Sequence record: PV615261
DNA: 53,672 bases
From: Shigella phage vB_Shi_2KOFFS
Direction: 5' to 3' (one strand)
Position numbers and translations under genes: made by a program. Positions 12,439-52,777 of the stretch are shown piece by piece; positions within the stretch are counted from its first letter, which is position 1, and each line of letters opens with the position of its first letter. The notes below the pieces were generated by a model. The model saw nothing but the letters and a program-made list of their open reading frames with translations. It searched no databases and was not told the DNA's origin.

Positions 12439-12624
12439 ATGCGCACAATACAATGCCCCAACTGCCATTATGAAATTGCAGAAGATGATTTCATAACGCA
12501 GCAATGCCCTATCTGTGATTCATACATGCCACTAAACCGCCTGTACTTAAAGGCCGATTCTGGTTTAGGCAGCATCATTCGCATCAATCCCGTGCAAACT
12601 CAGCCATTAGTGGATTGTGATTAA
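12439..12624 (+). CDS. small zinc-ribbon protein
   Basis: CPNCHYE...CPICDSY paired CxxC motifs in 61 aa. Confidence 0.45.
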   Translation: MRTIQCPNCHYEIAEDDFITQQCPICDSYMPLNRLYLKADSGLGSIIRINPVQTQPLVDCD

Positions 12625-12643: not shown

Positions 12644-14662
12644 ATGTCAAAGACTGATGACCTCGGACCGGAGTTTAATGATACAGTAGCCTCGTATCTT
12701 GCCAAGCACTACGGTGACGTATTAAAAGTCTCAAGAGAAAGATTCTGTATTCTATCTTTGCCATTGCTCCGTCGATATATTTCAGAAAATACTGCAATAG
12801 TTGACAGCTATGAAGAACAAATTCAAGCAGAGTTAGAAGGCCAGGGTCTTGAAAACGATGCTGTATTGCGTTCCGTTTTCAGAGCACAACTTGAGCGTCT
12901 TCGCTCTGGCGACAAGAAAGACTCGACTGCCTATGCAGATGAGTTGAAGAAAGGTATTCAAGCAGGTGTTACTGACCGTGTTGCAGGTTCCACATTAGAG
13001 GAGCCAAACTCGGAGCATGATAACACCGACGAACTTGTAGACAAGATTCTGCATGACCCACACAATGTGGACCCAACTGTAATCCCTGCCAAGGTTGCAG
13101 AACGTGTTCGCAAAATCTTGATGAAAAGTTTCGAAGCCTTTGGTAAATGGCAGTTCCATATTCAGATGGGATTTCCATTTCAAGCACAGGACTTTCACGA
13201 TGTAATATTCAGTGTTGGTCAAAAGGTTGTTGATGGCGAGATTGACCGCTTAATAGTGACCATTCCTCCACGACACTCTAAGACTCAGCTCATGAGTATT
13301 GCATTGCCCTTGTATTCATTTTGCCACAATGAATCAAGCCATAACATTATCACTTCGTATGCAGAAGACGTTGTTCTTGAATCGAGTGGTTACATCCGTG
13401 CTGTAATGATGGACCCACTGTTCCAACGCATATTCCCGAAGGTGAGAATCGACCCCAACAAACGTTCTCTTGAACGCTGGGGTACAACCAAAGCTGGAGT
13501 TATGCACGCAGTGCCTACTGGTGGTAAGCTAACTGGTAAAGGTGCTGGACTTCTTGTTGCAAAATACTCCGGCTGTTTCGTGGTGGATGACGTTATCAAG
13601 CCGAAAGATGCCTACTCTGACACAGTTCGAGCAGAAATCAACGACCGATTTGATAACACCTTCATGTCACGTCTCGCCAACGATGGTTGCATAACTGATT
13701 CGTACGGAAACCAAATTAAGTGTGCCCGTACACCAATGGTTATCATCATGCAGCGAGTTCATGACCAGGATTTAGTTGGTTATATACTCCGTGGTGGCTC
13801 TTCTGATAAATACCATTATCTCAATATCCCAGCGATTATTGAGAAAGGTGTCGGAAGTGCTGAATGGTATGATAAGTTAATCAAGAAGCAGAACTACACT
13901 CATGCTATTCCCATTCTGTATAATTTGAACAGGAAGGAAGAGAAGTCTGCATTATGGCCTTCACGTAAGAGCTTAGAATCTCTGGAGGCAATGAAAGAGT
14001 CTAACCCATACACATACAATTCACAGTATGCTGGCGACCCATCTGCACAAGGCCATGGCCTTATCAAAGAAGATTGGTGGCAAGAGTATGAGCCAGACGT
14101 TTTCGACAGAAGTCGCATAGTCAGAAGTTTTATTACAGCGGATACGGCATCAACTGCCAAATCCTATTCTGATTATTCGGTCCTTAAGCATTGGGGCGTG
14201 ACTAAAGAGCGTGACGTTTATTGTTTAGATATTATGCTCGGTAAGTTTGAAACTCCAGAACTCAAGACTGCTATCATCGACTTCTGGAACAAATGCAACA
14301 AGTTGGACTTGAAATGCGTAGGTTGTATTCCTCGTGCATTGTACATGGAAGACAAGTCTGCCGGACAATTCTTGAACCAACAATTTATCAGAGATGGGAG
14401 TGTCCGAGTTTTACCATTGCCTCGTGATGGGATTAATGGTAATGACAAGGTAACTCGATTCCTTAACGCAATCCCATATTTCTCGCAAAAGAGAATATTC
14501 TTCCCTGCTGGTCATGAACACATTGACCACGTTAGACGTGAAATACTTGGATTCACTTCTTTGGGTAGTGGTACTGGACACGACGATTGTGTCGATAACG
14601 TTTCAGATATGGTTGCAATCGAATTCTCAGGCCCAAGTGCCAACTACTCCGCATGGATGTAA
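12644..14662 (+). CDS. terminase large subunit
   Basis: Deviant Walker A IPPRHSKTQ, Walker B-like CFVVDDVIKP, C-terminal acidic nuclease-like region; position before portal. Confidence 0.8.
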   Translation: MSKTDDLGPEFNDTVASYLAKHYGDVLKVSRERFCILSLPLLRRYISENTAIVDSYEEQIQAELEGQGLENDAVLRSVFRAQLERLRSGDKKDSTAYADELKKGIQAGVTDRVAGSTLEEPNSEHDNTDELVDKILHDPHNVDPTVIPAKVAERVRKILMKSFEAFGKWQFHIQMGFPFQAQDFHDVIFSVGQKVVDGEIDRLIVTIPPRHSKTQLMSIALPLYSFCHNESSHNIITSYAEDVVLESSGYIRAVMMDPLFQRIFPKVRIDPNKRSLERWGTTKAGVMHAVPTGGKLTGKGAGLLVAKYSGCFVVDDVIKPKDAYSDTVRAEINDRFDNTFMSRLANDGCITDSYGNQIKCARTPMVIIMQRVHDQDLVGYILRGGSSDKYHYLNIPAIIEKGVGSAEWYDKLIKKQNYTHAIPILYNLNRKEEKSALWPSRKSLESLEAMKESNPYTYNSQYAGDPSAQGHGLIKEDWWQEYEPDVFDRSRIVRSFITADTASTAKSYSDYSVLKHWGVTKERDVYCLDIMLGKFETPELKTAIIDFWNKCNKLDLKCVGCIPRALYMEDKSAGQFLNQQFIRDGSVRVLPLPRDGINGNDKVTRFLNAIPYFSQKRIFFPAGHEHIDHVRREILGFTSLGSGTGHDDCVDNVSDMVAIEFSGPSANYSAWM

Positions 14663-34984: not shown

Positions 34985-34993
34985 GGTAATGTA

Positions 34994-37198: not shown

Positions 37199-37215
37199 AA
37201 TGGTAAGGAACCCGA

Positions 37216-38870: not shown

Positions 38871-39015
38871 CGATTATATGCGAGAAGAGATTCGATGCGT
38901 TAGCATCGTTTCTCTTTGAGCTAGAATAAAACAAGTAAATTAAATATTTATTTATTCCCAATATTGCTACAATATTAAGAGTAATATTAGGAATGCGTAA
39001 AGTTAAAACCAAATG

Positions 39016-39419: not shown

Positions 39420-39436
39420 CCATTAGTTGGTTGTGA
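39420..39436 (+). promoter_or_regulatory. conserved promoter-like motif (CATTAGTTGG family), upstream of RNA polymerase gene
   Basis: cCATTAGTTGGtTGTGA; one of at least 9 copies of consensus ACATTAGTTGGATGTGAA. Confidence 0.45.
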
Positions 39437-39498
39437 TTATGAATAGGCTACGCAAGTCTAATCCGTTTCAGTTAAATCATAATCAATTGGAGACTATC

Positions 39499-41613
39499 AT
39501 GACTAACGAAGAATACCGTGCACTGGCTGCTGATGGCGCTCGCTTGAAAGAAGAAGGCCAAGGTTGGAAAGACGTGCTCGATACGATGGACCGTTGCAAT
39601 CAGATGGTAGATGAAATCACCTCCGCTACACAATCCGAAACTAAAACCGAAACTAAATTGGAGACTCGCAAAATGACAACTATCTCAACTCAAACTATCA
39701 AATCCGTTGTCCCTGCTATCACTGCTCTGGTATATCGTGCCAAAGAGAAACAGAACTACATGCAACCTCAGACCTGTGCTATTGCTGCTCTTGCAATCTT
39801 TAAGATGATGACCTCATTCACTCGTGATGATGTTGTTCCTGCAATTGCAATGGTTGAGCTGGCTTCTGCTTCAATTGCTGATGCCAACCGCTACAACAAC
39901 GATTTGAAAGCAATGCACTATGTTGACCCAGCTATCAACCTCATTGGTCTGGCTAAACACTTTGGCTTCATCACCATGAACGAAGATAAGTCATTCCAAC
40001 AAACTGACACATGGGTTGAACTGGTTACAACCAAAGACACAGCAGTGCCATTCACTGAGCGTGTTACATCTGAATCTCGTCGCAAGCCTTTCGTTAAAGG
40101 TGGCAAAGTTAAGCCATCCAAGACTCTGAAAGCTGCAATCGAATTCCTGCAAGATACTGAGTACCATGTGGAGACTGAGATGGTTCGCATCATTCAGTCC
40201 ATGCTTGAGCAACGTACTTATGGTGGCTTGCAGATGCCAGAAGCAATCCAGACTGAACTCCATGTTTGGAACAATGCTGTAGCAATGATGAATCAGGACA
40301 CACTGTATTCTGACTACTTTGCTGATAACCGTGGCCGTCTGTATCATGTAGCATGTGCTGGCCCTAACCCACAATCCTCTGACTTTGCTCGTTGCTTGTA
40401 TTCTCACAATGTTGAGAACATCGTTAAGAAGTTTAACGAAGATGGTTCTACTACCATTGCATACAACATGTTCATGGCAGAGCTGGAAGATATTTCTGGT
40501 GGTGAATGGTGCAGTGCTAAACGTTTAACTTATGTTGCTCAGAATCCGGCTGGTTCACTTGCTCGCATGATGAACATGCCTAAAGCTGAACGTCCTTCCA
40601 AGCCATTCACTTATGTTCGTCTGGCTCTGGATTGGTTCAAGTTTGAGACTATAGGTGAATGCGATTCTCGTGTAGGCTTTGGCTTAGATGCTAAATGTTC
40701 TGGTACTCAATATCTGGCATTCATTGCTGGTAACATGGAAATGGCTCGTGCTACAGGTCTGGTTGATTCTGAGACTAAAGCATCTGACCCATACCAGTTG
40801 AGTCTCCGTGAACTGTTGAAGTTACTCGACCGCTCTTCAATGAAGCCATCTCCTGAAATCATGGACGAATTCTTGAATCCGAAATCTGGTCGTAAGTTTA
40901 TCAAAACTCCGTACATGGCTATCCAATATGGTGGTGGTAAAGCTGCATTAACTGGTTCTTCTGACTTTATCTCCTACATGACAGAAGCGCTCCAGATTCC
41001 TATGGAGAAAGCTGAGGCATTTGCTGAACTGTGTGTAGAAGCAATCCATAACGCATTGGGTGCTAAGATTAACATGTTCATTGAGAAAGCTGCTGATGCT
41101 GCATACAACCGTTGTGTTGAACTTGGTAAAGAGTACATCACATACCGTCACACAGACGGTCAGGTTGTAATGAAGCCTTGCTTCCCATCTCGTGAAATCT
41201 GTGAGGCATTCAGCATTCGTGTTGACTCTCAAACTCGTGTCATCTTTGGCCAGATTCAGGAGAATAAGCCTTGGACCATTCGTGAATCCAACCCAACTAA
41301 AGAAGAATTCAAGCGTACTTTCGTTGTTAACTACATTCAAGGTATTGACGCATTGGTTGCTCGTACTGTTGCAGTTAAAGCTAAAGAAGCTGGTCTTCGT
41401 GGTTTTACTTCAATCCATGATTGTTTCCGTTGCTGTCTGGCAGATGCTCCACGTATGATGGAAGTTATTCGTGCAGCATATGTTGAAATCTTCGTAACCA
41501 ACAATCAATTCGAGAATCTGTCTAAGCAACTTGGTGGCATTCAGATGTATCATGAGAACATCGTAACCGAAGAGCTTCTGATGAGCGAACACGCTTACTA
41601 CTTCTGTCAATAA
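39499..41613 (+). CDS. T7-like single-subunit DNA-dependent RNA polymerase
   Basis: Motif A GLDAKCSGTQYLAFIAG (T7 DGSCSGIQH), motif B RKFIKTPYMAIQYGGGK, motif C FTSIHDCFRC (T7 IHDSFGT); ATG 39499 after GGAG; about 704 aa. Confidence 0.8.
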   Translation: MTNEEYRALAADGARLKEEGQGWKDVLDTMDRCNQMVDEITSATQSETKTETKLETRKMTTISTQTIKSVVPAITALVYRAKEKQNYMQPQTCAIAALAIFKMMTSFTRDDVVPAIAMVELASASIADANRYNNDLKAMHYVDPAINLIGLAKHFGFITMNEDKSFQQTDTWVELVTTKDTAVPFTERVTSESRRKPFVKGGKVKPSKTLKAAIEFLQDTEYHVETEMVRIIQSMLEQRTYGGLQMPEAIQTELHVWNNAVAMMNQDTLYSDYFADNRGRLYHVACAGPNPQSSDFARCLYSHNVENIVKKFNEDGSTTIAYNMFMAELEDISGGEWCSAKRLTYVAQNPAGSLARMMNMPKAERPSKPFTYVRLALDWFKFETIGECDSRVGFGLDAKCSGTQYLAFIAGNMEMARATGLVDSETKASDPYQLSLRELLKLLDRSSMKPSPEIMDEFLNPKSGRKFIKTPYMAIQYGGGKAALTGSSDFISYMTEALQIPMEKAEAFAELCVEAIHNALGAKINMFIEKAADAAYNRCVELGKEYITYRHTDGQVVMKPCFPSREICEAFSIRVDSQTRVIFGQIQENKPWTIRESNPTKEEFKRTFVVNYIQGIDALVARTVAVKAKEAGLRGFTSIHDCFRCCLADAPRMMEVIRAAYVEIFVTNNQFENLSKQLGGIQMYHENIVTEELLMSEHAYYFCQ

Positions 41614-41632
41614 CAACTAAGCGCCAAGGATG

Positions 41633-41650
41633 GCATTAGTTGCATGTGAA
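41633..41650 (+). promoter_or_regulatory. conserved promoter-like motif copy
   Basis: gCATTAGTTGcATGTGAA, 26 nt upstream of ORF start 41676. Confidence 0.45.
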
Positions 41651-41675
41651 TCTAATAAACAATTTGGAGCATATC

Positions 41676-41843
41676 ATGTTTACAGTGACCCTAGTAACCT
41701 ATTACGGCAAACAAGTTTGTGAGAAGTTTGAGACTTTAGAAGAAGCAAGAGCTTTTGCAGCACTTGAAGAGAACATTTATGTAGAGTGTGAAATCACTGA
41801 TGGTGATAAGCAATACGAAATAGTTAAGCCTACACTCAACTGA
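41676..41843 (+). CDS. hypothetical small protein (55 aa)
   Basis: ATG after GGAGCATATC; downstream of promoter-like motif. Confidence 0.45.
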   Translation: MFTVTLVTYYGKQVCEKFETLEEARAFAALEENIYVECEITDGDKQYEIVKPTLN

Positions 41844-41893
41844 TTCCCAATATTCAGACAATATTGCTGCATGTAATATTGTCTCGATATTCG

Positions 41894-41911
41894 ACATTAG
41901 TTGGATGTGAA
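41894..41911 (+). promoter_or_regulatory. conserved promoter-like motif copy
   Basis: ACATTAGTTGGATGTGAA exact consensus; no ORF follows for about 1.1 kb. Confidence 0.45.
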
Positions 41912-42610
41912 GTAAAAGAATACGGAGAAATATTACTCACGTTGTTCGTGGGTTTCCGCATGTCATGTTGAATCATTCTAGAAACATTCAGCATGTCAGC
42001 TTTGAGTTACAGTGTTGTAATGATGTGGCAATCATTGAACTCCCTAGGTAGGCCACCTACAGTTCCAGCAACCATGACTTAGAGTAGGAATATCTATCCG
42101 AAACTTGTACTTCACCTATAGCATGTTCAATTGCGACAATATTGCTCCATCTCCTATTATAAAGGCCCACCCACAAGCCGGGAGATAACTTTGGTAATAT
42201 TGGAACTTTTGGACATGCTTCTTTCTTTCAATCAGAATTCGAAAGAAGAGAAGAGTCGGAGCAAAGCCTCTCGTTTTCACGCAGAAGCCGCCCCGATTTT
42301 GAGCAACAAATATTGTGACAATTTTGTCGCAGTATGGCATGTAAATATTGCTACAAATTGGCATGTTAGAATGTGGCAGAATTGTTAGAGGACTAATCAC
42401 CTCGAAGATACAATCGTCTACCAATCTGGCATGTTAATTTTGTAACAGTATTTGTGCCAATTTCGCATGTAATAGCTGTATCAGTAATGACCCAATATTC
42501 TTGCAACCCGCATGAATACTGGCTTCCAGCCAAGCGAAGGCTTTATCATCGCATGTAATATTGTGACAATATTGGGATAAAACCCTTTATTTAATTTGTT
42601 TTATTATGCT

Positions 42611-42650
42611 GTACATGGTCGGTTTTCCGTACCTGCTTGCTCCAATCTTA
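42611..42650 (+). repeat. 35-40 nt intergenic repeat element, copy 2
   Basis: GTACATGGTCGGTTTTCCGTACCTGCTTGCTCCAATCTTA; matches 39016-39050. Confidence 0.6.
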
Positions 42651-42765
42651 ATGTGCCAAATACGTTAAGTATGGGAGTAAACCTGTAATTAATGGTGCAT
42701 GTTTAATTGTGACAAAATTCGTCTATTTGGCAGATGAATTAGTTGCAATTAAGCATGTTCATTTA

Positions 42766-42783
42766 TCATTAGTTGCATGTGAA
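42766..42783 (+). promoter_or_regulatory. conserved promoter-like motif copy
   Basis: tCATTAGTTGcATGTGAA. Confidence 0.45.
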
Positions 42784-43076
42784 TAAGACCAAATCTCTGT
42801 AAATTCTGCTGAAATTGTGTGACAGATTTTAGAGAGATTATGTCTCCAAGCTAATCATTGTAGTTTTTAGACACTTTGTGTGTCACATATATAGCCTGTG
42901 AAAAACGTGTGGTTTATTGCCGGATTGCAACGCGCCCACCAGACTAGGAAGTCCCTGATGGCGGCACACACAGGAATACTATATAACTCCCTACAACTTT
43001 AAGGTGGATTGAGGTAAGACAAGACCTCCACAATCGTTCTGTAGGGAGTTCTTTTAACTTAGGAGAATAAGCAGAA

Positions 43077-43307
43077 ATGAATTACGCACTGTATTGCTAT
43101 TTAAACAAACAAGGCTTTGTTAAGCACGCTTTGGTTAACATTAAAACTAAGGAAGTATTGTTGGCCGACCAATCAATTGTTGACTTTAGATTGGTATGGA
43201 AGAAAGCAATGCACCCTGAACATGTTTGGGAAACAATTCAGTTAGATAAGCACCACAAAATTGTGGCAACTGCTACTCGTCCAGACCACATTCTACCAAG
43301 AGGTTAA
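43077..43307 (+). CDS. hypothetical early protein (76 aa)
   Basis: ATG after AGGAG; first ORF after the 1.2 kb non-coding region. Confidence 0.55.
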   Translation: MNYALYCYLNKQGFVKHALVNIKTKEVLLADQSIVDFRLVWKKAMHPEHVWETIQLDKHHKIVATATRPDHILPRG

Positions 43308-43309
43308 TC

Positions 43310-43498
43310 ATGGACTTCATCGTCTACTTTAAGTTAAATGGTGTGGAGCAAAGATTGTACTTCAATTCTTTACTTCGTTTGCAACAGTGGGCGGAGAAGT
43401 TTGTTGGGTATGACTTTGAATACATCAACGCATGTACACCCGACGAACACGAGGAAATCGTGTTCAGCTCTTTAAATCAAATTCTGGAGGCCAAATGA
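43310..43498 (+). CDS. hypothetical early protein (62 aa)
   Basis: Tightly packed ORF. Confidence 0.45.
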   Translation: MDFIVYFKLNGVEQRLYFNSLLRLQQWAEKFVGYDFEYINACTPDEHEEIVFSSLNQILEAK

Positions 43499-43743
43499 GC
43501 CAGTTTAAGTTAAAAGCAGATTTAATCGAATTGGCCTCTTATGAAGAGAAGGTTGAATTCATCCAGGAGCGTCTTGTTGTCAACTTTAATAATTGGATAC
43601 ACCTTCCAGTAAGTGATGTAGTTAAAGAAGTTAAAAATGATTTCGGCATTGAAATCACAAAAAGACAATTCAATAAAGATGTTATGACTGACCGAATCAT
43701 GGATAGTTTAGTTAATAACTTTATGTCCTACAAAGGTGTGTGA
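43495..43743 (+). CDS. hypothetical early protein (82 aa)
   Basis: ATGA overlap with upstream stop. Confidence 0.45.
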   Translation: MSQFKLKADLIELASYEEKVEFIQERLVVNFNNWIHLPVSDVVKEVKNDFGIEITKRQFNKDVMTDRIMDSLVNNFMSYKGV

Positions 43744-43745
43744 TA

Positions 43746-43919
43746 ATGAACGACCAGCAATTCAACACATTCATGCAGCAAATTAATCATCAAGAATTGA
43801 TAGACACTCTCAAAGGCAAGAAGCCAGTTGAACGTAAATATCGTAAAATTGATAATTATATGCCAACAATCATTGCATGTGTTGGTGTTGCTATTGTTCT
43901 CTACTTCCTGGTGAGATAA
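43746..43919 (+). CDS. small protein with C-terminal transmembrane helix (57 aa)
   Basis: ATG 43746; C-terminal hydrophobic IIACVGVAIVLYFLV; below the ORF-track size cut-off. Confidence 0.35.
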   Translation: MNDQQFNTFMQQINHQELIDTLKGKKPVERKYRKIDNYMPTIIACVGVAIVLYFLVR

Positions 43920-44005
43920 TGGACATTGTTAAGAAATTAGTATTCTGTATCGTAATGTTCCCTCTGGTGCTGCTCGTTGTGGGCAGCTTCATGTACTTAA
44001 ACTAA
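43919..44005 (+). CDS. tiny hydrophobic peptide (28 aa)
   Basis: MDIVKKLVFCIVMFPLVLLVVGSFMYLN; ATG overlaps upstream stop (TAATG). Confidence 0.25.
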   Translation: MDIVKKLVFCIVMFPLVLLVVGSFMYLN

Positions 44006-44014
44006 GGTAATTAA

Positions 44015-44314
44015 ATGGCTTCTTTACTTGAATTCTCAAATATTGCAAATGTTGCTAAGAATTCCATTCCGGAAAACGCTGATGTAATTGCATATATGCG
44101 TGTTGATGTGAGTCTGTTGGCTTTTGTAATGGACCACATCAATCTTGTTGAAGAGCAGTTGTCTCAAGCCAATGAAACAATTGATAATCTTCGTGAGCTT
44201 CGTACAGCGGAGCAAAATTCTTATGCCGAACTGATGGAGCAGAAGAACAAGCTCCAAGAGCAATTGGCAGATGCACTTCAACAAATTGAAGAGCTGACTC
44301 CAGCATCTAAATAA
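44015..44314 (+). CDS. hypothetical coiled-coil protein (99 aa)
   Basis: ATG after AAGGT; heptad-like ELRTAEQNSYAELMEQKNKLQEQLADALQQIEEL. Confidence 0.5.
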   Translation: MASLLEFSNIANVAKNSIPENADVIAYMRVDVSLLAFVMDHINLVEEQLSQANETIDNLRELRTAEQNSYAELMEQKNKLQEQLADALQQIEELTPASK

Positions 44315-44332
44315 TCAAACTTAGGAGTTATT

Positions 44333-44593
44333 ATGGCTACCAAAACAGGCATGATGATTGTCCCGAGCCGTAATAACTCTTTAAGCGGCTTTACACCATA
44401 TCGCATCTACCGTGTAATCTCAGGGACTGGTGAAGCAAACCTGTCAGAAGTTGCTTTGAAGTTGGGCCGTATGGTCCACTCCGAAATATCCTGTAACGTA
44501 GTTGATGACGAAGGTAAAATCCGTTTTGTAACAATGGATTTCTTTCGTGAATTTAACCTCAAATCTGAATTAGGAGTTCTGTACCATGAATGA
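44333..44593 (+). CDS. hypothetical protein (86 aa)
   Basis: ATG after AGGAG. Confidence 0.5.
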   Translation: MATKTGMMIVPSRNNSLSGFTPYRIYRVISGTGEANLSEVALKLGRMVHSEISCNVVDDEGKIRFVTMDFFREFNLKSELGVLYHE

Positions 44594-44768
44594 GGATGAT
44601 GTTGTTTGCCCAAAGTGTGGCAGCAATAACGTAGACCATGTAACACACGAAGCAGTGGGAATGTATGGTCCCGTAGTTCTGGACAGTGCATTCTGTGTAG
44701 ATTGTGGTTTAAACATTTATCGTGGAAAACTTATAGACAACAGTGGGAATATCCCTCCAAAAGGATAA
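44586..44768 (+). CDS. small zinc-ribbon protein
   Basis: CPKCGSN...CVDCG paired CxxC in 60 aa. Confidence 0.45.
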   Translation: MNEDDVVCPKCGSNNVDHVTHEAVGMYGPVVLDSAFCVDCGLNIYRGKLIDNSGNIPPKG

Positions 44769-44770
44769 TC

Positions 44771-44998
44771 ATGAAATTTAAATGTGTTGCTTCGACCAAA
44801 GATTATGTTCCAGTTGGCTTCATCGTTGAAGGTGAAGCTATCTCACCTTTGGAATTTAAAGTGACCAAATCGGCTGAGAATGTTTCTCCAGCATTTCGTA
44901 AAGGTGCTGTAGTTCCTATGAATGGTGCGTTCTGGACATGGCAGCGTGACCATGAAGCAGAATTTGCAGATATTTGTGAACAAGGCTTATTACAATGA
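44771..44998 (+). CDS. hypothetical small protein, paralogue A
   Basis: MKFKCVASTKDYVPVGFIVEGEAISP...FWTWQRDHE; similar to next ORF. Confidence 0.5.
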   Translation: MKFKCVASTKDYVPVGFIVEGEAISPLEFKVTKSAENVSPAFRKGAVVPMNGAFWTWQRDHEAEFADICEQGLLQ

Positions 44999-45225
44999 CA
45001 AAGTTTAAATGTGTGAAATCAACCTCTTCATCTGAGTATTCTCCAAAAGTTGGAGATGTGATTGAGGGAGAACTTATCCAAGTACACGGAGGTCGTGGAT
45101 TCCGCCACAGAGTGCTTATTTCTAAAGATAGTGACCGAAAAATGCCAGACGGTAAGCCATACTTTTCACTTGGTGAAACAGTTCCCTTAGAAGGCAGTGT
45201 TTGGACTTGGAAAGAAGTTAAATAA
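44995..45225 (+). CDS. hypothetical small protein, paralogue B
   Basis: MTKFKCVKSTSSSEYSPKVGDVIEGELIQ...VWTWKEVK; tandem duplicate of 44771..44998. Confidence 0.5.
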   Translation: MTKFKCVKSTSSSEYSPKVGDVIEGELIQVHGGRGFRHRVLISKDSDRKMPDGKPYFSLGETVPLEGSVWTWKEVK

Positions 45226-45288
45226 TTTCCTCAACCACTTTTGTAATGAGAGTGGTTGCTGAATATTATTAATCAACTTGGAGCATTT

Positions 45289-45579
45289 ATGAAACAGCGT
45301 ACTCGTTTACAACGTGACCCAGCCACAGGTCGCTTGTTACCAGCATATTTGAAAGTTGGTGACTTAGTTTACACTCGCGACTTTGCTTTTGATATTTGTC
45401 CAAGCAAAGCGTATGAAGTTCTTGCCACCAGCTTGTCTGGTCCTAAAGTGATATTCGGTGCACTTGAGCCAATTCAGTTAACCGGAACTCAGTTTGTCAT
45501 TAAAGACGAATCTGGTTGCAATCGTATCTTCAATCTCGAAGGTGGATTATCCAAATGGGAGAAGGTGAAGCGTGGGTAA
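45289..45579 (+). CDS. hypothetical protein (96 aa)
   Basis: ATG after GGAGCATTT. Confidence 0.5.
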   Translation: MKQRTRLQRDPATGRLLPAYLKVGDLVYTRDFAFDICPSKAYEVLATSLSGPKVIFGALEPIQLTGTQFVIKDESGCNRIFNLEGGLSKWEKVKRG

Positions 45580-45805
45580 GAATTATATCGAAATGTTTAA
45601 GCAACTGTCCATCAATGGGCAGGAGTTCTTGCTAAACGATGCAAGGCAAGATGTAGAGCTGTCTGATAAGTATAGCTCCTTATATCAGAGAACCATTGTA
45701 AAATGGACGTTCTCTTATATATCTTACAATCTTCCAGAAGAGACGCTTGTAATTAGCGGTTCTGGAAATTCAGTTTTAGCAGCTTTGGAGAAACTAAAGC
45801 AATGA
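45572..45805 (+). CDS. hypothetical protein (77 aa)
   Basis: GTG start overlapping upstream gene end. Confidence 0.4.
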   Translation: MGKNYIEMFKQLSINGQEFLLNDARQDVELSDKYSSLYQRTIVKWTFSYISYNLPEETLVISGSGNSVLAALEKLKQ

Positions 45806-46089
45806 ACAAGAATTCAATCGTTAAATATGTTGGTGAAACTAATTCCAGCTTTACCAAAGGAAAGAAGTACAAAATCGTCGCAGGTCGTGGTGACGGGGTT
45901 CCTCGCAACAACGGTACACTCGGTGCGTATATTCAATCTCCTTTGGGTTTTGTCGTTGTTGATGATAACAACGTTCTACTCTATCGTACATTCACCAATT
46001 TGTGGGAGTTGGTAAAAGATTCTGGCGAAGTTAGTTGGTATAAACCTGAATCAAACATCGACCCAATTCCTATTTCCAAATCTATGTGA
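45802..46089 (+). CDS. hypothetical protein (95 aa)
   Basis: ATGA overlap. Confidence 0.45.
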   Translation: MNKNSIVKYVGETNSSFTKGKKYKIVAGRGDGVPRNNGTLGAYIQSPLGFVVVDDNNVLLYRTFTNLWELVKDSGEVSWYKPESNIDPIPISKSM

Positions 46090-46130
46090 TTAACAATGGG
46101 CATCTCCTGTAGGTGTCCATGATTAATCTA

Positions 46131-46148
46131 ACATTAGTTGGATTTGAA
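46131..46148 (+). promoter_or_regulatory. conserved promoter-like motif copy
   Basis: ACATTAGTTGGATtTGAA, 75 nt upstream of 46223. Confidence 0.45.
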
Positions 46149-46222
46149 GAGGGACAAAGCTATTCCGTGGTTAGCAATGTCACTGAAACTTAAACTGTAA
46201 TTAACTTAAGAGAATCTTAATC

Positions 46223-46603
46223 ATGGCACAATATTCAGATGTAAACACTGGCATCATCGGTCCTAACGGCTTCAAGAAAGACCCAAAACATCCTGACATT
46301 CGTGGACGTATTAACGTTGACGGAATCTGGTATTGGGTGTCTGGTTGGAACAAGCAAGCCAATGGTAATGAATTTACCTCACTTGCATTAACCATCATGA
46401 CCCAAGAACAGGTTGATGAAATGATGCGTAAGCGTGAAGAGAAGGCTAAAGCCAAAGCTCAACCTCAAGCTGCCGCTCAACAGCAACAGCAACGCCAGCA
46501 ACCTTCTGCACAACAGCAAGCACCTGCTCAACAGCAAGCTCCGCAGTCATCTGGATACAACCCAAATGAGCCGCAGGACTTTGATAGCGACATACCATTC
46601 TGA
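46223..46603 (+). CDS. small protein with Gln-rich linker and SSB-type acidic C-terminal tail (DFDSDIPF)
   Basis: 126 aa; about 60-aa beta-rich N-terminus, Lys/Ala helix, QQQ-rich linker, terminal PQDFDSDIPF resembling the bacterial SSB C-terminal peptide. Confidence 0.6.
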   Translation: MAQYSDVNTGIIGPNGFKKDPKHPDIRGRINVDGIWYWVSGWNKQANGNEFTSLALTIMTQEQVDEMMRKREEKAKAKAQPQAAAQQQQQRQQPSAQQQAPAQQQAPQSSGYNPNEPQDFDSDIPF

Positions 46604-46995
46604 TGAATAAGGTCTGTAAAATCTGTGGGAGTTTAAAAGCTCCTACAGACTTCTATCGGAATGACAGGACATGTAAAGTTTGCCGTTGCGCCAAAGTACG
46701 TGCAAACCGTGCAGCAAAGATTGACCATTATCGCAAGTATGAACGAAAACGCGGTTATCATGGTAACGGCCTTAATGATGCCAGGAAGAAATATCCAAAT
46801 CAATATAAGGCCCAAACTGCTGTAAACAATGCTATTCGAGATGGACGATTACAGGCAAAACCTTGTCAAGTGTGCGGTTGCATTATATCTCATGCCCACC
46901 ATGATGATTACAACAAGCCTCTTGATGTTCGCTGGTTGTGTCCTCGCCACCACAATGAGTGGCACGCCGAAAACGGAGAGGGACTTAATCGATGA
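46603..46995 (+). CDS. HNH endonuclease (zinc-ribbon plus HNH)
   Basis: CKICGS...CKVCRC and HAHHDDYNKPLDVRWLCPRHHNEWH; paralogue of 5144..5527. Confidence 0.7.
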   Translation: MNKVCKICGSLKAPTDFYRNDRTCKVCRCAKVRANRAAKIDHYRKYERKRGYHGNGLNDARKKYPNQYKAQTAVNNAIRDGRLQAKPCQVCGCIISHAHHDDYNKPLDVRWLCPRHHNEWHAENGEGLNR

Positions 46996-47100
46996 AAATT
47001 TTATGTTTTATAGGGCTACATAATTGGGAGATTTCTCATACAAACGATTATGTAACCCTTTGGGTGTGTAAGCACTGTTCAGAAATGCGTGAGGAATATC

Positions 47101-47790
47101 ATGGCAAATAACTTTGTCGAAATACCTGCCAATTTGGTCAAACCTGGTGATGTATTGGTTTACGGCAACAGGGAATACCGGATTGAAAACATTCTACGGT
47201 TTAGTGATGCAGTTCAGTTGCAATATTCTGGTGGGTACTACAATTTTGAATTTGGCCGCATAGTCAAAGTGCTCGACAGGCCACCAGCTTTGGAAACTCC
47301 AACAGCAACATTCAACACCCAGATAACACCAGTATTTCTCCCCTATGGTGAAGCAGTGAAGCCATTCTCAGACGAAGAGGATGTTAAGGGTGCTGATGTA
47401 GAAGTTGGTGATGTTATTTGGTACAAGGGAAATTGGGCAACTGTTACAAATACGTACAAGCATCCGTACTCACCATACAATAAAGTCAATATTGACCATG
47501 ATGGTGTAAAAGGTCTGCAAGTACGCCTGACATTATCTGGAACTTATTCAAGAAAGGTAAGAGCAATAATGGAAACATTAAATATTCAAAATGCAATCGA
47601 AGCGCAACGTATTCTTCTGCAAAAGCTAGAGCAAATGCTGGACTTACAGCAACTTGCACCAACAGAAGATGGCAAGATTGCAATCGGCAACTGTAACATT
47701 CGCGTGGACAAGGCATCAATCACTAAAGCCGCACGCGATGAAATGAAAGCTGCTGCAAGCAAATCAGCAGAGCTTATTAAGAAGCTGTAA
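47101..47790 (+). CDS. hypothetical protein (229 aa)
   Basis: ATG after GAGGAATATC; no motif recognised. Confidence 0.55.
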   Translation: MANNFVEIPANLVKPGDVLVYGNREYRIENILRFSDAVQLQYSGGYYNFEFGRIVKVLDRPPALETPTATFNTQITPVFLPYGEAVKPFSDEEDVKGADVEVGDVIWYKGNWATVTNTYKHPYSPYNKVNIDHDGVKGLQVRLTLSGTYSRKVRAIMETLNIQNAIEAQRILLQKLEQMLDLQQLAPTEDGKIAIGNCNIRVDKASITKAARDEMKAAASKSAELIKKL

Positions 47791-47842
47791 TTAACAGAGG
47801 TCATTCCACTTCGAGTGGCCTCGATTAATTATTGGAGGAATT

Positions 47843-48202
47843 ATGAAACTTAAGTACATCATTATTTATACTTTAGCATTAATTGTTTTGGCGTTCTTCA
47901 GCTTTGAGTCTAAAGCGTCAACAAAGAACTTCAAATGTGGAGCATATGCTCTTGTAATTGATAACATCGGAGACAGCCAACCTCTGATTGCGTCAATAAT
48001 TCCTGAAGCTGGTGTTTGGATAGAGGTTCCAAGTGATGAACCCAATCCTGCAACAGTTTTGTTTTACAACATTAAAGATAGCAGGTTTGCTGCACTGTTT
48101 ATAAATCATGAAGATAAACTTGTACTTCAGATTTTCCGTGACGGAGACTTCCTCAAAGCAAACTACCCTATCTTATCCACCAGCTGTACGGAGAAGAAAT
48201 GA
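47843..48202 (+). CDS. secreted/periplasmic protein with N-terminal signal peptide
   Basis: MKLKYIIIYTLALIVLAFFSFESKAS signal-like N-terminus; ATG after GGAGGAATT. Confidence 0.5.
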   Translation: MKLKYIIIYTLALIVLAFFSFESKASTKNFKCGAYALVIDNIGDSQPLIASIIPEAGVWIEVPSDEPNPATVLFYNIKDSRFAALFINHEDKLVLQIFRDGDFLKANYPILSTSCTEKK

Positions 48203-48432
48203 CTTCAACCGAATTTACCATTGATGGAGTTCAATACCTGCTGGAATCTGATTGCGAATATCGCCATTGGACAGTAGTTCACGACCGAGTTGTAAAATAC
48301 TTGGAACGTGTAGGGAAGGAAACTGCTAAATCTATGTTGTTTGAGGCAACAGTTCTTGGAACAACCTCAATCAATAAAGAATTAGTGTCTTTCAAATTAA
48401 CCATTCACCCTAGCGGGAATAGCTTTCAATGA
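48199..48432 (+). CDS. hypothetical protein (77 aa)
   Basis: ATGA overlap. Confidence 0.45.
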   Translation: MTSTEFTIDGVQYLLESDCEYRHWTVVHDRVVKYLERVGKETAKSMLFEATVLGTTSINKELVSFKLTIHPSGNSFQ

Positions 48433-48704
48433 TTTCGATAGACCAAGTTCCAGTTGAACTAAGTAAGGCAAAAGGTAAGCTAGATGATGCCAAATCTGAC
48501 TTATCTACCTTTGATTTAAATGCTCCGGCCGATAAAGTTAAAGTTTTCATCGACTGTATTGACGGATGGGTGCTTGTTGAGCACGCAGTCCTTCGAGCAT
48601 TACTTGTTGATGAAGTTACCAAGGCTCAGGCATCATTTGATGAACTTGATAACCTCAACACACTGTTAAACAATACTTTAAACGATGCGTTAAAGGGTAA
48701 ATAA
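48429..48704 (+). CDS. hypothetical protein (91 aa)
   Basis: ATGA overlap. Confidence 0.45.
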   Translation: MISIDQVPVELSKAKGKLDDAKSDLSTFDLNAPADKVKVFIDCIDGWVLVEHAVLRALLVDEVTKAQASFDELDNLNTLLNNTLNDALKGK

Positions 48705-49117
48705 TGAATGTTAAGCTCGGTCAACGTTCTTTAGACCGACTTAAGGGAGTAAATCCTTCATTAGTTGCAGTTTTCAAACGAGCATGTGAAACCATGCCTT
48801 TTGATGTAACTGTTTTGGAAGGTTTACGCTCTTATGAACGTCAACAAGAACTGTTAAAACAAGGTGCAACCAAAGTTTCAGTAAGCCGACACATGTCTGG
48901 TAACGCTTTGGACATTGCACCATATCCAATTGACTGGAATGACCTCGAACGATTCAAAGTTTTAGCTCATCACATGTTCAAAGCTGCAAAAGAGCTTGGA
49001 ATTACCATTCGTTGGGGCGGGAACTGGAGCCGTATTGATGAAAATCAGCCGTATCCACCACTTGCACCAGGTAAGAAGAAGCTGATTGATATGCCCCACT
49101 TCGAACTTCCAGCATAA
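48704..49117 (+). CDS. peptidase M15 family cell-wall peptidase (zinc D,D- or L-Ala-D-Glu peptidase fold)
   Basis: Zinc-ligand pattern [13 protein letters not shown] plus C-terminal MPHFEL; 137 aa, no signal peptide. Confidence 0.65.
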
Positions 49118-49137
49118 CTTCATCAATGGAGAATCCG

Positions 49138-49404
49138 ATGAATTATCAAGACATACCAGCAGAGATTCAGCATCACTATGCCCGTATAGATAAGGCAAAG
49201 AAAGAATTGCATCAAATGTCTGCGCTGAATCTAAGCGATGAAGTTCGATTAAATGCTTATATGGAGGTTGGAGAAACTTCCATGAAAATTAGCTTCAATG
49301 AGAAAGAAGCTATTATGCGGACGCTTATTAAAAATAGCGAGGAAAGATTAGTAAAACTTCGTAAAATACATAGTGCACTAACTGACACAATGGAGAGCAT
49401 ATGA
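49138..49404 (+). CDS. hypothetical protein (88 aa)
   Basis: ATG 49138. Confidence 0.45.
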
Positions 49405-49943
49405 GCACCATTATCCAAGCAATAGAAAATCTTAAGTCCTGGCGTAGAGATGAAACCTTATTGGTTCGTTTCTACACAGGCGAAACTAATTCTGAATTTG
49501 TAGATGCGTGGATTGATGGCCTATCTTGGCGTCATTATGATTTCAACATGCGAGATTATTTGCATGAAGAATACGGCATTGAATATCCAGAAGACGGTAC
49601 ATACGACGTAATTGAATCAAACGAAGAAGATGTTACCGAAGTTTGCTTTGCCAACGGCCTATTCAGCATTCGTAAGTACGATAAGTTCAATGAGCTGCTT
49701 GTTGATACTGATTTGGATGTAATTCTTGCAGCATTCCGCAGTGGTGATATTGATATTTTCACTGTGGATGATTTGAACGATATGTTCATTACACGTTGTG
49801 ACTCAATTACAGAATACTTGAAGCAAAGTGAGTCACTGGATATTCCAGACCGCCTTGCACCATATATTGATTGGGATGCAATCACCAAAGATTATGGAAG
49901 TGACTACATCTTCTCTGAGGGAGTATTGTTCTTAAATGTCTGA
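49401..49943 (+). CDS. hypothetical strongly acidic protein (180 aa)
   Basis: Very high Asp/Glu content throughout. Confidence 0.5.
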
Positions 49944-50172
49944 CTTAAATATCAACTCAATAAAGCCAGAAGATATTCTCTTCCACCAGCCTCGTGGACA
50001 CTACTATCGAATTCTGTTTGCTACAAAAATTAAAACCCACTGCGGCAATTGGGTAGATGGGTTTGCTTACCAGGAAGTTAAGAAGTATGGAAATCATACT
50101 TTCTTGGGAATTAATTCGATAATTTATACAAGACCGAAGGAACTGTTTGATTCAGATTGGAAAGCAGTATAG
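49936..50172 (+). CDS. hypothetical protein (78 aa)
   Basis: ATG overlapping upstream gene end. Confidence 0.45.
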   Translation: MSDLNINSIKPEDILFHQPRGHYYRILFATKIKTHCGNWVDGFAYQEVKKYGNHTFLGINSIIYTRPKELFDSDWKAV

Positions 50173-50240
50173 TTCCAGGCTGTTCCGTCGAAGTGCCAAG
50201 CGGGTTTTGTACTCGCATTGGCCTTCGGCTTAATTCTGGG

Positions 50241-50258
50241 ACATTAGTAGAATTTGAT
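50241..50258 (+). promoter_or_regulatory. conserved promoter-like motif copy (degenerate)
   Basis: ACATTAGTaGaATTTGAt, preceded by TTAATTCTG shared with copy at 50381. Confidence 0.35.
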
Positions 50259-50380
50259 TCTGACCTCTTAGGGAAGAACTGCATTATACATCTATCGCCA
50301 AATGGGTGTCAAGCACTTTCTTAATTTATTTTATTTATTCTTATTATTCGTGCGGTTTGGAATAATGGAATAATTCTGAA

Positions 50381-50398
50381 ACATTAATTGGAATTGAC
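50381..50398 (+). promoter_or_regulatory. conserved promoter-like motif copy
   Basis: ACATTAaTTGGAaTTGAc, preceded by TTCTGAAACATTA as at 52345; 10 nt upstream of the structured element. Confidence 0.4.
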
Positions 50399-50408
50399 AA
50401 CATCAGAT

Positions 50409-50486
50409 AAGAGCTTTGTAACTAGGTAGTCCGTCTGGTACCAAGACGTGTGAGAACGTTCGATTCGTTCTACAAAGCTCTTTTCG
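50409..50486 (+). ncRNA. candidate small structured RNA with tRNA-like T-arm and acceptor-like stem, ending in a U-tract
   Basis: 12-bp closing stem 50409-50420/50471-50482; internal hairpins 50432-50448 (5-bp stem, 7-nt loop) and 50454-50470 GAACG-TTCGATT-CGTTC (canonical T-arm shape); no D-arm; followed by CTTTTC. Confidence 0.35.
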
Positions 50487-51031
50487 ATGGAATGTTTCCA
50501 TCATATACATTTATCTTTTAACATAGGCCAAAAGGCCGGAATACTTATTCGCAGAAAAGCTATTCACTTGTTATAGGCGATGTATTGGGATGAATTGGAA
50601 CTAAATAAGCAAGCTGTTAGGGCTGAATAATTAGAGGGTTATGCCTCATGCTTATGTTAGTCGTTCGAAAATAGGTTTGTGCCACAAGCTGCTGGTGCTC
50701 TGAGGAAGTCGGACAAACAGGGCTTAGAGTGGCATAATCCTCACAAAACCGCGCCACCAGCTATGCCAAAGCAGGTAGGTTGGGTGAATGTATTGGGAAG
50801 GGTTACAAAGCCTCTGTGACCTCCGTAGCTTGCCAGGCTGCGGTGCAGTTATGATACGCAGGTCGCACCCTAACGGGAGTAACCCTTCGCCAATGCAGTC
50901 ATCCAGAATTGACACAAACGGTAGGCAGTGGCCCGATTTTCGGCCTTCCTGCGCTGCCCTGTGGCCTGTTTCATGGGCCAAAAGATGAGAAGAGAAGTCA
51001 CAAACACTGAATCGAAAATTGGAGAGTTCCT

Positions 51032-51352
51032 ATGATTCGCAAGCATTCTGCTAAAGTTTTGACATTAAGAAATGTACTAATGTCTTCGCCAAGTGGGGAA
51101 GAGGAGGAAGAAACAATCCACTTCGTTCTCGTTGGCGGGCGTTGGTATTACAACGGGACCAATAACTTCACCGTAGGAATTTCGGAGAAAGATGGGTTCT
51201 GGAAGCACACTTTCAAAGACATACTCGAATGTAGTGCTAAATACACCCTTGCAGAAGTTAAGAAATATTTCTACTGCGGCCCAAACAAGTCCATGCAAAT
51301 CGCAACTCGCAATTGGACAACAAACCAACCAGTTTACGGAGTTCCATTTTGA
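51032..51352 (+). CDS. hypothetical protein (106 aa)
   Basis: ATG after GGAGAG. Confidence 0.5.
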   Translation: MIRKHSAKVLTLRNVLMSSPSGEEEEETIHFVLVGGRWYYNGTNNFTVGISEKDGFWKHTFKDILECSAKYTLAEVKKYFYCGPNKSMQIATRNWTTNQPVYGVPF

Positions 51353-51639
51353 ACTTACAAGACAAATCCAAAGAAGAGTTGATTGAGATTATCCAGAAGG
51401 AGCACGAACTCGCTGGCATCACAATCAACTATGAACTCCGGGCAATGCAAGCTGTTGCTTTGGGTCATGGTCTAATGGCTACACTCATTCATGCCAAGAA
51501 TGTGTTAGGCATTGACAACGAAAAATACCAAATTCTGGAGAAAGCTGCGCAAGAGCGGATTTCGCAGTGCTTGGTGACATTAGTTGATTTGGGAATCGAC
51601 GCAGAAACTGCGAACAAACGTATCCTACAAGGCCACTAA
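51313..51639 (+). CDS. hypothetical protein (about 96-108 aa)
   Basis: Start uncertain (TTG 51313 or TTG 51349 overlapping upstream stop). Confidence 0.4.
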   Translation: MDNKPTSLRSSILNLQDKSKEELIEIIQKEHELAGITINYELRAMQAVALGHGLMATLIHAKNVLGIDNEKYQILEKAAQERISQCLVTLVDLGIDAETANKRILQGH

Positions 51640-51640
51640 A

Positions 51641-52315
51641 ATGTCTTATCATGATGATGACAAAGAGATTGCACTATCAACGTGTAAGCAATGGCTCAAT
51701 GATAATGATGCCGTCTATCTTGCCAAGGAAGATGTTATCATTATGTGGGTCCATTTTAATCCAGAATCGAAGCGCGGTGAGTGGCAACGCTACAAGATGA
51801 AAGAGGCTTGTCGCATAATTAAAGCCACACGCGCTGGCTTCTCTGCTATGAAATACATCAAGCCAGAGATGCTAATGCTTGCTGCACAAGAAGAAGAACG
51901 TGCATATAAGCAAGCTGTTAAATCTCGTTCAACTGTTCCTCCAGAGTTCTTTAATTTGGAGCGCGCTGGACACTTCAACAATTTAGAAATGTTGACACTG
52001 TGCCTGTTGCAAGAATTAGTTGGAAGAGGACAAAACATTGAAGCTGTTTGTCTTGGAGAACTCATGAAAGAGTTGTTCTCGGCAAAGGGCTTTGCTGTGC
52101 CAAATCGAACTTTACGCTGGAAATTGTTGCGAGCAGTCGCACAAGAAGCTGGTGTAGTTGTTCGTGACAGAACAAACCGACTCACTGTAACTGGAGTTGG
52201 GCGTTTTGTAGCAATCCAGATTGAGGGTTATGACGAATCAATCATCACTGAACTCACTGTCGATGAGACAAAGGATTTAGTAAATAAAACACTAGAACGA
52301 TTCAATAGATATTGA
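51641..52315 (+). CDS. hypothetical protein (224 aa)
   Basis: ATG 51641 immediately after upstream stop. Confidence 0.5.
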   Translation: MSYHDDDKEIALSTCKQWLNDNDAVYLAKEDVIIMWVHFNPESKRGEWQRYKMKEACRIIKATRAGFSAMKYIKPEMLMLAAQEEERAYKQAVKSRSTVPPEFFNLERAGHFNNLEMLTLCLLQELVGRGQNIEAVCLGELMKELFSAKGFAVPNRTLRWKLLRAVAQEAGVVVRDRTNRLTVTGVGRFVAIQIEGYDESIITELTVDETKDLVNKTLERFNRY

Positions 52316-52344
52316 GTCGTTTGACGAATCAGAGCAGTTCTGAA

Positions 52345-52362
52345 ACATTAGTTGGATGTGGA
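52345..52362 (+). promoter_or_regulatory. conserved promoter-like motif copy
   Basis: ACATTAGTTGGATGTGgA, 77 nt upstream of 52439. Confidence 0.45.
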
Positions 52363-52438
52363 AAGAGAAAGGCTCTTTAATTTTATCTAAGTCACGTCAC
52401 CGTGGCGTGCAAAACTATTCAATATAAGGTATATACAA

Positions 52439-52777
52439 ATGGCTAAGATTGTAACCGTAACTCAGTACGAAGCTAACGATGGTTCCCTGTTCCTGACCGA
52501 AGCAGAGTGTAATGCACATGACTTCAAACTGGAAAACGGTGCTAAAATTGAGAAAGCTGCCGAAGCGTACCTGAACACCGTTGGCGCTATCGACCGTTCT
52601 CGCTCCATGCAGAAGAACACCATCGAGCAGTTCCTGGCATTCTACCTGCCGTGGGTTGAAGCTGGTGAGCCGGAAGTTGAGCGTACTAAGTTCGATACTC
52701 CGAAAGAAGCTAAAGTTGCTGATGCAGCTGTTTCCGAAGCTGCCGAAGCTGCTGTTGAAGAAGCTCCGGTATTCTAA
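52439..52777 (+). CDS. small acidic protein with highly optimised codon usage (112 aa)
   Basis: ATG after AAGGT; net charge about -11; codon usage like the capsid genes; flanked by promoter-like motif and downstream hairpin. Confidence 0.6.
   Translation: MAKIVTVTQYEANDGSLFLTEAECNAHDFKLENGAKIEKAAEAYLNTVGAIDRSRSMQKNTIEQFLAFYLPWVEAGEPEVERTKFDTPKEAKVADAAVSEAAEAAVEEAPVF

Follow-up and report, generated by a model that had tools for sequence, protein, structure and literature searches.

The genome of Shigella phage vB_Shi_2KOFFS (sequence record PV615261) was analyzed as a single window of 53,672 nucleotides (nt), i.e. the whole stretch of DNA, which is a permuted form of the complete genome. The phage belongs to the genus Carltongylesvirus (phiEcoM-GJ1/ST32-like myoviruses) of the family Chaseviridae, whose members are myoviruses of 52-56 kb with a gene for a T7-like single-subunit RNA polymerase. 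All long open reading frames (ORFs) of the window lie on the plus strand, and mostly between them recurs a motif with the consensus (a)ACATTAGTTGGATGTGAA and a conserved block of about 18-20 bases (Table 1). We propose that these motif copies are, in all likelihood, promoters recognized by the T7-family RNA polymerase of the phage itself, a proposal that is based on comparative sequence analysis. A megablast search with positions 39000-53000 against GenBank phages matched 64 records, the top relatives being Escherichia phages BSBP01, DE15, ST32, SA91KD and phiEcoM-GJ1 (hereafter GJ1) with 88-92% identity; over the early region the window and GJ1 are 89% identical overall. For comparisons across genera we used the window, GJ1 and one genome from each of four further genera of the Cleopatravirinae, namely 4HA13 (Sabourvirus), PM1 (Suwonvirus), pEa_SNUABM_27 (Loessnervirus) and PA_03 (Myducvirus), giving a set of six genomes from five genera including Carltongylesvirus. 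The polymerases of the latter four phages are 66-76% identical to that of the window.

That the genome encodes a single-subunit polymerase of the T7 type, as had been stated in an earlier reading of the letters and translated frames (the sequence-only reading), was borne out by profile searches, in which the protein matched PF00940 with 67.7 bits (cut-off 22; E=1.1e-18) and phrog_414, 'RNA polymerase', with E=5e-97. About 170 phage records carry this polymerase. It is 99% identical to the RNA polymerases of Escherichia phages Bp10 and SKA49 and very divergent from the T7 enzyme, which a phmmer search against PDB recovered with only E=0.004. The resulting weak alignment covers the DxRGR segment (YFADNRGRLY versus YNMDWRGRVY in T7) and the catalytic motifs, i.e. 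motif A (LDAKCSGTQY versus FDGSCSGIQH) and motif C (SIHDCF versus LIHDSF). Because the phage protein has about 145 fewer residues ahead of the equivalent of T7 residue 408, its promoter-binding N-terminal domain is much reduced. FVVNYIQGIDA aligns with T7 GIAPNFVHSQDG, which follows the specificity loop, and the segment just before it shows good conservation across the five genera. Only the polymerase of the Proteus phage has a 4-residue insertion there, and that phage has a divergent motif (TTGAGTGTGAA); this coincidence of a loop-region insertion with a variant motif is suggestive only. The start MTTISTQ used in other genera is codon 59 of the window ORF, and the preceding 58-codon in-frame extension (MTNEEYRALAADG..., 39499-39672) is common to Bp10, SKA49, Mangalitsa and TH28 and absent from GJ1 and ST32, with 4HA13 encoding a separate 55-residue protein, gp01, where the extension would be.

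The motif emerged as the top family in a mismatch-tolerant all-against-all de novo repeat scan of the window, and its CATTAGTTG part is the commonest 9-mer of the window, with eight occurrences on the plus strand and none on the minus strand. Matches to ACATTAGTTGGATGTGAA with 0-3 mismatches were found at six positions (39420, 41633, 41894, 42766, 46131 and 52345) versus 0.11 expected, and the copies at 50241 and 50381 differ from it by four mismatches. These eight strong copies, every one on the plus strand, are what stands of a sequence-only list of at least nine; the ninth, at 12034, is taken up below. A scan of the whole genome with a 20-nt matrix derived from these eight copies returned 15 sites on the plus strand and none on the minus strand at a threshold of at least 12 bits, compared with 0.62 per strand (maximum 4) in first-order Markov simulations, and the seed sites retained 14-28 bits when each was left out in turn. 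All eight lie in non-coding DNA, which accounts for about 15% of the window when taken as sequence outside ORFs of at least 50 amino acids. The distance from the 3' end of the motif to the next ORF start ranges from 25 to 530 nt at these sites, going by a crude gene map. The earlier list was also incomplete in that it missed weaker plus-strand copies at 7574, 12604, 27085, 51577 and 52013. Its statement that the late structural block holds no clear copies is therefore not entirely correct, given the weaker ones at 12604 and 27085; upstream of the major capsid gene (17710-18057 scanned) no copy was found.

Table 1. Motif copies, polymerase gene and predicted hairpins in the window. P1-P9 denote the promoter features annotated in GJ1.
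Feature	Positions	Strand	Sequence	Score (bits)	GJ1 annotation	Context
Motif copy	39420..39437	+	CCATTAGTTGGTTGTGAT	25.1 (leave-one-out 18.6)		61 nt 5' of first ATG of RNA polymerase ORF
Motif copy	41633..41650	+	GCATTAGTTGCATGTGAA	27.3		25 nt 5' of small ORF 41676..41843
Motif copy, exact consensus	41894..41911	+	ACATTAGTTGGATGTGAA	30.0	phage promoter 1 (P1)	Heads 1.2-kb ORF-poor region
Motif copy	42766..42783	+	TCATTAGTTGCATGTGAA	27.5	phage promoter 2 (P2)	293 nt 5' of small-gene cluster 43077-46089
Motif copy	46131..46148	+	ACATTAGTTGGATTTGAA	29.6	phage promoter 3 (P3)	74 nt 5' of SSB gene 46223..46603
Motif copy, weaker	50241..50258	+	ACATTAGTAGAATTTGAT	22.0 (leave-one-out 14.0)	phage promoter 4 (P4)	
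Motif copy, weaker	50381..50398	+	ACATTAATTGGAATTGAC	22.0 (leave-one-out 14.0)	phage promoter 5 (P5)	
Motif copy	52345..52362	+	ACATTAGTTGGATGTGGA	27.7	phage promoter 7 (P7)	76 nt 5' of ORF 52439..52777
Motif copy, variant, non-seed	7574..7591	+	GCATTATTTGGAAGTGAT	19.5	phage promoter 8 (P8)	131 nt 5' of 7723..8586
Motif copy, variant	12604..12621	+	CCATTAGTGGATTGTGAT	17.2		22 nt 5' of large terminase gene 12644..14662
Motif copy, variant	27085..27102	+	ACATTATTTGAATATGTA	14.1	phage promoter 9 (P9)	Between tape-measure and baseplate-hub genes
Motif copy, weak	51577..51594	+	ACATTAGTTGATTTGGGA	17.3		Within coding-region end, 46 nt before gene 51641..52315
Motif copy, weak	52013..52030	+	GAATTAGTTGGAAGAGGA	13.1	phage promoter 6 (P6)	Inside gene 51641..52315
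Single-subunit RNA polymerase gene	39499..41613	+				704-residue ORF; start conserved in other genera (MTTISTQ) at 39673
Terminator-like hairpin, 11 pairs, T-rich tail	27047..27082	+				Directly 5' of 27085 copy; best terminator-like match of late region
Stable hairpin	46088..46128	+				Directly 5' of 46131 copy
Stable hairpin	52295..52322	+				5' of 52345 copy; similar hairpin-forming sequence in GJ1, 4HA13 and PA_03 (by eye)
Terminator-like hairpin	38893..38908	+				After last late-block gene
Terminator-like hairpin	12400-12419					Precedes 12604 copy
Terminator-like hairpin	8597-8612					From terminator scan

The motif as a promoter set is already known as a prediction, having been in GenBank since 2008. 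GJ1 is the type phage of the genus, and its record EF460875 / NC_010106, which stems from Jamalludeen et al. 2008 (Appl Environ Microbiol 74:516) and which we considered as prior art through its GenBank features and secondary citations, bears nine features of the type 'regulatory / promoter / putative phage promoter'. Their sequences are those of this motif (P1 CGACATTAGTTGGATGTGAA, P3 CAACATTAGTTGGATGTGAG, P7 AAACATTAGTTGGATGTGGA), and the matrix derived from the window scores P1-P9 at 13-30 bits; these GJ1 features are themselves only predictions. The flanks of P1, P3, P7, P8 and P9 align between the window and GJ1, and P2, P4, P5 and P6 were paired with window copies by their flanking sequence and by their order among the listed sites. 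Three of the copies missed by the sequence-only reading thus coincide with annotated GJ1 features (7574 with P8, 27085 with P9 and 52013 with P6). Beyond the GJ1 annotation the window has the copies at 39420 and 12604, whose GJ1 equivalents (569 and 26981) are unannotated, and the copy at 41633, which is absent from GJ1. What the present analysis adds to the 2008 annotation is the conservation across genera, the extra copies before the polymerase and terminase genes and a model with two late operons. The paper on ST32 makes no mention of promoters, and a literal search of papers for the motif sequence gave unrelated matches only.

The matrix derived from the window detected 7-11 plus-strand sites of at least 12 bits in each of the other genomes, versus 0-2 on the minus strand. 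A site 5' of the polymerase gene is present in four of the five, namely GJ1 (569, unannotated in EF460875), 4HA13 (120), PM1 (182) and PA_03 (170), and not in pEa_SNUABM_27; the other recurring positions are just 3' of the polymerase gene, before the SSB gene, at the P7 position and in the gap between the tape-measure and baseplate-hub genes. The 41894, 46131, 52345 and 27085 copies have syntenic counterparts throughout the six genomes. When five syntenic sites were aligned with MAFFT, taking 60 nt on either side, the motif was essentially the sole block conserved in all genomes. Its CATTAGTTG part is almost invariant, with lineage-specific variation in the 3' half (GGAATTGAT in 4HA13, GAGTGTGAA in the Proteus phage). 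Among loci retrieved from IMG/VR together with the fetched genomes, which are few sequences, identity is 0.90-0.94 in the first 12 motif bases versus about 0.8 in the flanks. An IMG/VR scan for CATTAGTTGGATGTGA gave 28 loci, about half of them on 50-57-kb contigs of Chaseviridae size, and the remaining half are presumed to be mostly chance matches. Outside the subfamily, Aeromonas phage BUCT696 (Nefertitivirinae) has a polymerase about 33% identical to that of the window, and the motif CATTAGTTGG was not found in its genome. The presence of a shared core in five genera and its absence from BUCT696 would agree with motif and polymerase tracking each other by lineage, a correlation drawn from one genome per lineage.

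The shape of the motif bears on what might recognize it. Over 40 sites of at least 18 bits from the six genomes, information is limited to about 19-20 positions, the in-block values being inflated because the sites were picked with the matrix itself and the flank values being unbiased; the flanks are flat apart from a weak preference for TTCT just 5' of the block. The sequence-only reading had also described an upstream extension shared by the 50381 and 52345 copies, and this is real (TTCTGAA ACATTA). In the 40 nt downstream of the same sites no conserved position and no -10 element at a fixed distance was detected. The motif is a single asymmetric block pointing in the same direction as the genes. 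It could in principle be the site of a phage factor that redirects, activates (in the manner of MotA) or represses the host RNA polymerase, since such a factor would equally leave a conserved intergenic motif before genes and since many small early proteins without assigned function are encoded at 43077-50172. T4 middle promoters, which combine a MotA box with a sigma70 -10 element, are comparable in having a phage-specific box before non-early genes, but the present motif lacks a -10 at fixed distance and its block is twice as long as the MotA box. The flat information from +1 to +40, the lack of any sigma70-like match overlapping a copy, and the asymmetry and strand-specificity, which set the motif apart from dimeric-regulator operators (its ACAT/ATGT inverted repeat, 4 bp long, is broken in several copies), all speak against such a factor site. 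Moreover, the dedicated polymerase encoded here must have promoters, and the genome offers no second repeated motif with a comparable distribution as a candidate. We therefore regard a site for a host-polymerase factor as improbable.

Two further promoter types were considered and rejected. A sigma70 promoter was discarded because the TTGGAT of the motif has no -10 partner and no conserved hexamer follows 17 bp downstream. Sigma70-like sites are not enriched in the whole genome relative to shuffled sequence (31 versus 34.8, 27 versus 30.5 and 34 versus 33.9), and no match of the consensus scan on the plus strand overlaps a motif copy. A hairpin promoter of the N4 type was discarded because the ACAT...ATGT inverted repeat is only 4 bp long and is broken in several copies.

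The copies are often preceded by stable hairpins. Such structures lie directly 5' of four of them, those at 27085 (-17.8 kcal/mol, z = -4.5), 46131 (-18.2 kcal/mol, z = -4.4), 52345 (-16.5 kcal/mol over the whole 55-nt stretch, z = -3.1) and 50241 (-15.6 kcal/mol, z = -2.4), and at the 27085-type position a hairpin-capable sequence is seen by eye in all six genomes despite diverged sequence. With copies located between co-directional genes and beside stable hairpins, their position would fit a 3' signal equally well, i.e. a pause or termination signal of the phage polymerase or an RNA processing site. However, the hairpin precedes the motif, which is the order expected of a terminator followed by a promoter, and the 39420 copy stands before the first gene of the genome, where no unit transcribed by the phage polymerase should end, barring read-through on concatemers or in the right-hand copy of the terminal repeat. 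The block of 19-20 nt also has the size of a T7-type promoter, the sequence-specific pause signal of T7 being short (about 7 nt), and the motif neither predicts a conserved RNA structure nor matches Rfam. A termination or processing signal is thus, in our estimate, very improbable.

If the motif is read as a promoter of the phage enzyme, the 12604 and 27085 copies would have a particular role in the late block. As each lies behind a terminator-like hairpin, we suggest that there are two late transcription units, one from 12644 to 27048 (terminase to tape-measure) and another from 27125 to 38870 (baseplate, fibres and lysis). The 12604 copy, a candidate promoter for the head and tail operon, is identical in GJ1 (26981) and is matched in position by weak sites in 4HA13 (10.7 bits) and in PA_03 (8.0 bits), with none found in PM1 or pEa_SNUABM_27. 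The 27085 copy is likewise a candidate promoter for the baseplate, fibre and lysis operon.

A third explanation operates at the DNA level, with the motif being a repeat that marks recombination or module junctions or serves as a replication or packaging signal. By synteny with Mangalitsa, whose terminal repeat measures 3,234 bp (PhageTerm) and whose record position 4 corresponds to window position 39293, and with 4HA13, which has a terminal repeat of 3,120 bp, the physical left end of the genome should be near 39290 and the direct terminal repeat should extend to about 42520. Three copies near the polymerase gene would accordingly fall inside the predicted terminal repeat and beside an array of dyad repeats, and a 14-nt half-copy occurs at a breakpoint of homology with GJ1 in the dUTPase gene. 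Yet copies occur genome-wide before conserved genes, keep their syntenic places across five genera and are without exception oriented along the direction of transcription; a promoter role is, furthermore, compatible with occasional recombination between copies. We consider a purely DNA-level repeat to be hardly credible, and the least probable of the explanations entertained here. The half-copy is what the sequence-only reading had listed as a degenerate ninth copy at 12034: only the half-site TATTCGACATTAGT is present, at 12020-12033, where the dUTPase gene encodes the C-terminal part of the protein. The 3' half shows no relation to the motif, the 20-mer has a score of -4.4 bits, and GJ1 lacks the half-site. 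It was rejected as a motif copy. We observed that TATTCGACATTAGT sits exactly where homology with GJ1 breaks off, the two sequences realigning from TGGAACCTATCTGAAATG on, and this half-site may have been left by a recombination event in which a promoter copy took part.

On the more probable interpretation, that of promoters for the phage enzyme, the motif can be compared with the known promoters of the T7 group (T7, T3, SP6 and K11). These too are single asymmetric blocks of about 17-23 bp that are intergenic, co-directional with the genes and often located after a hairpin; here as in T7 a cluster of copies is found immediately 3' of the polymerase gene, and the polymerases belong to the same Pfam family with motifs A and C retained. 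The 5' half of the SP6 promoter bears a partial resemblance to the motif by eye. There are also differences: T7 is not known to have a copy before its polymerase gene, whereas the polymerase gene here is preceded by the 39420 copy, and unlike T7 with its class III promoters the window has its best matches in the early and middle regions and weak ones in the late region, and the virion is that of a myovirus.

Taken as promoters, the copies would accommodate the following transcription programme. Expression of the polymerase gene would begin with the host RNA polymerase, acting from the AT-rich region at about 38.9-39.25 kb, in the equivalent of which a sigma70 promoter is annotated in GJ1. The phage enzyme would then bind and initiate at or just past the 3' end of each motif and, with T7 taken as the model, CATTAGTTGGATGTGAA (17 bases) would represent positions -17 to -1. 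The 39420 copy before the polymerase's own gene would provide positive feedback, and the near-consensus copies at 41633, 41894, 42766, 46131, 50241, 50381 and 52345 would drive the early and middle clusters. Transcripts starting at 52345, reinforced by the weaker 7574 copy, would run into the replication genes, and the degenerate copies at 12604 and 27085 behind terminator-like hairpins, together with read-through of the unidirectional genome, would supply the two late operons. We infer polymerase binding, the +1 position, the temporal order and the feedback loop.

Several considerations weigh against this proposal. The strongest copies being early and middle and the late ones weak is the reverse of T7, and the motif sequence is not convincingly like those of the T7 group. 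The base 3' of the motif varies (T 20, G 12 and A 8 among the 40 sites), such that +1 is not obvious. A location between co-directional genes is, taken alone, as consistent with the end of the preceding unit as with the start of a new one, the weak copies at 51577 and 52013 fall within genes, and among close relatives the gain in conservation of the motif over its flanks is modest. The 2022 ICTV profile states that Chaseviridae promoters 'have not yet been identified' (PMC12842549), and the searchable literature yielded no transcript mapping, no in vitro transcription and no binding data on Chaseviridae phages. If confirmed, the proposal would settle the identity of the promoters that the ICTV called unidentified in a family of myoviruses with a T7-like polymerase, would lay out the transcription programme of a phage group used for biocontrol of E. 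coli, Erwinia and Pectobacterium, and would offer a short orthogonal polymerase-promoter pair for synthetic biology.

Some of the individual copies merit separate comment. The 41633 copy is present in ST32, whereas GJ1 has no counterpart that reaches 11 bits. The ST32 annotation places the start codon of ORF2 on a TTG inside this copy ('AGGATGGcattagTTG'; window position 41640), and if the motif is a promoter ORF2 must begin instead at the ATG at 41676, as in the GJ1 annotation. The 50381 copy is followed by about 390 nt without ORFs up to 50788. The 7574 copy is near the end of the small gene following the DNA polymerase gene and is conserved in GJ1 and 4HA13. The 51577 copy also occurs in GJ1 (12354) and 4HA13 (11868) and its status is uncertain, and the 52013-type copy is found inside the homologous gene in five genera, a conservation that may be due to the protein sequence.

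After the polymerase gene, positions 41844-43076 comprise 1.2 kb without a credible ORF, the counterpart of which is unannotated in five independently annotated relatives, and which holds the 41894 and 42766 copies. The first 12 or so nt past the 41894 copy (GTAACAGAAtAC, adjoining its 3' end) hardly differ among five of the six genomes, and about 30 nt (GTAACAGAATACGGAGAAaTATT..) are common to the window, GJ1, 4HA13 and PM1. Such conservation points to a non-coding transcript or to an origin activated by transcription, as in T7. Apart from the motif there is another repeat family, which has a unit of about 26 nt, 'GCATGT(a/t)AATATTGTGACAATATT', with a core 7-bp dyad AATATTG-N3-CAATATT. About 10-12 plus-strand copies of it are found in the ORF-poor region at 41849-42573, and three copies lacking GCATGT lie upstream of the polymerase gene at 38960-39239; the array after the polymerase gene is also seen in GJ1, 4HA13, PM1, pEa_SNUABM_27 and PA_03. 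If the terminal repeat of about 3.2 kb is placed by synteny with Mangalitsa and 4HA13, dyad arrays would flank both of its boundaries, and these repeats might function as promoters for the host enzyme, as operators, as origin iterons or in packaging. The primary origin of T7 has the promoters phi1.1A/B just after gene 1. By this analogy the 41633, 41894 and 42766 copies, the ORF-poor 1.2 kb and the dyads could together form a transcription-activated origin and/or a site of terminal-repeat processing, with the 41894 copy producing a non-coding RNA rather than an mRNA, a conjecture that we rate as rather doubtful. Between the 42766 copy and the gene at 43077 lies a long hairpin followed by TTCTTTT (42986-43049; z = -1.7, not significant against shuffles), which might act as an attenuator or serve for RNase III-type processing.

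In the annotations of GJ1 and ST32, a tRNA-Arg of 95 nt lies about 1.3 kb past promoter P7; Mangalitsa has none. A search of the window with ARAGORN detected no tRNA; the tRNA-Arg, which by synteny would be expected near 53670 wrapping to the window start, may be split by the end junction or absent.

Finally, in BUCT696 we noticed about eight intergenic plus-strand copies (at 1407, 4073, 4835, 16178, 52673, 52703, 52861 and 53009) of a short GC hairpin followed by CCAAAAGAA, e.g. GGCTCtaGCGAGCCAAAAGAA, and this repeat is a candidate promoter or processing signal of the Nefertitivirinae.

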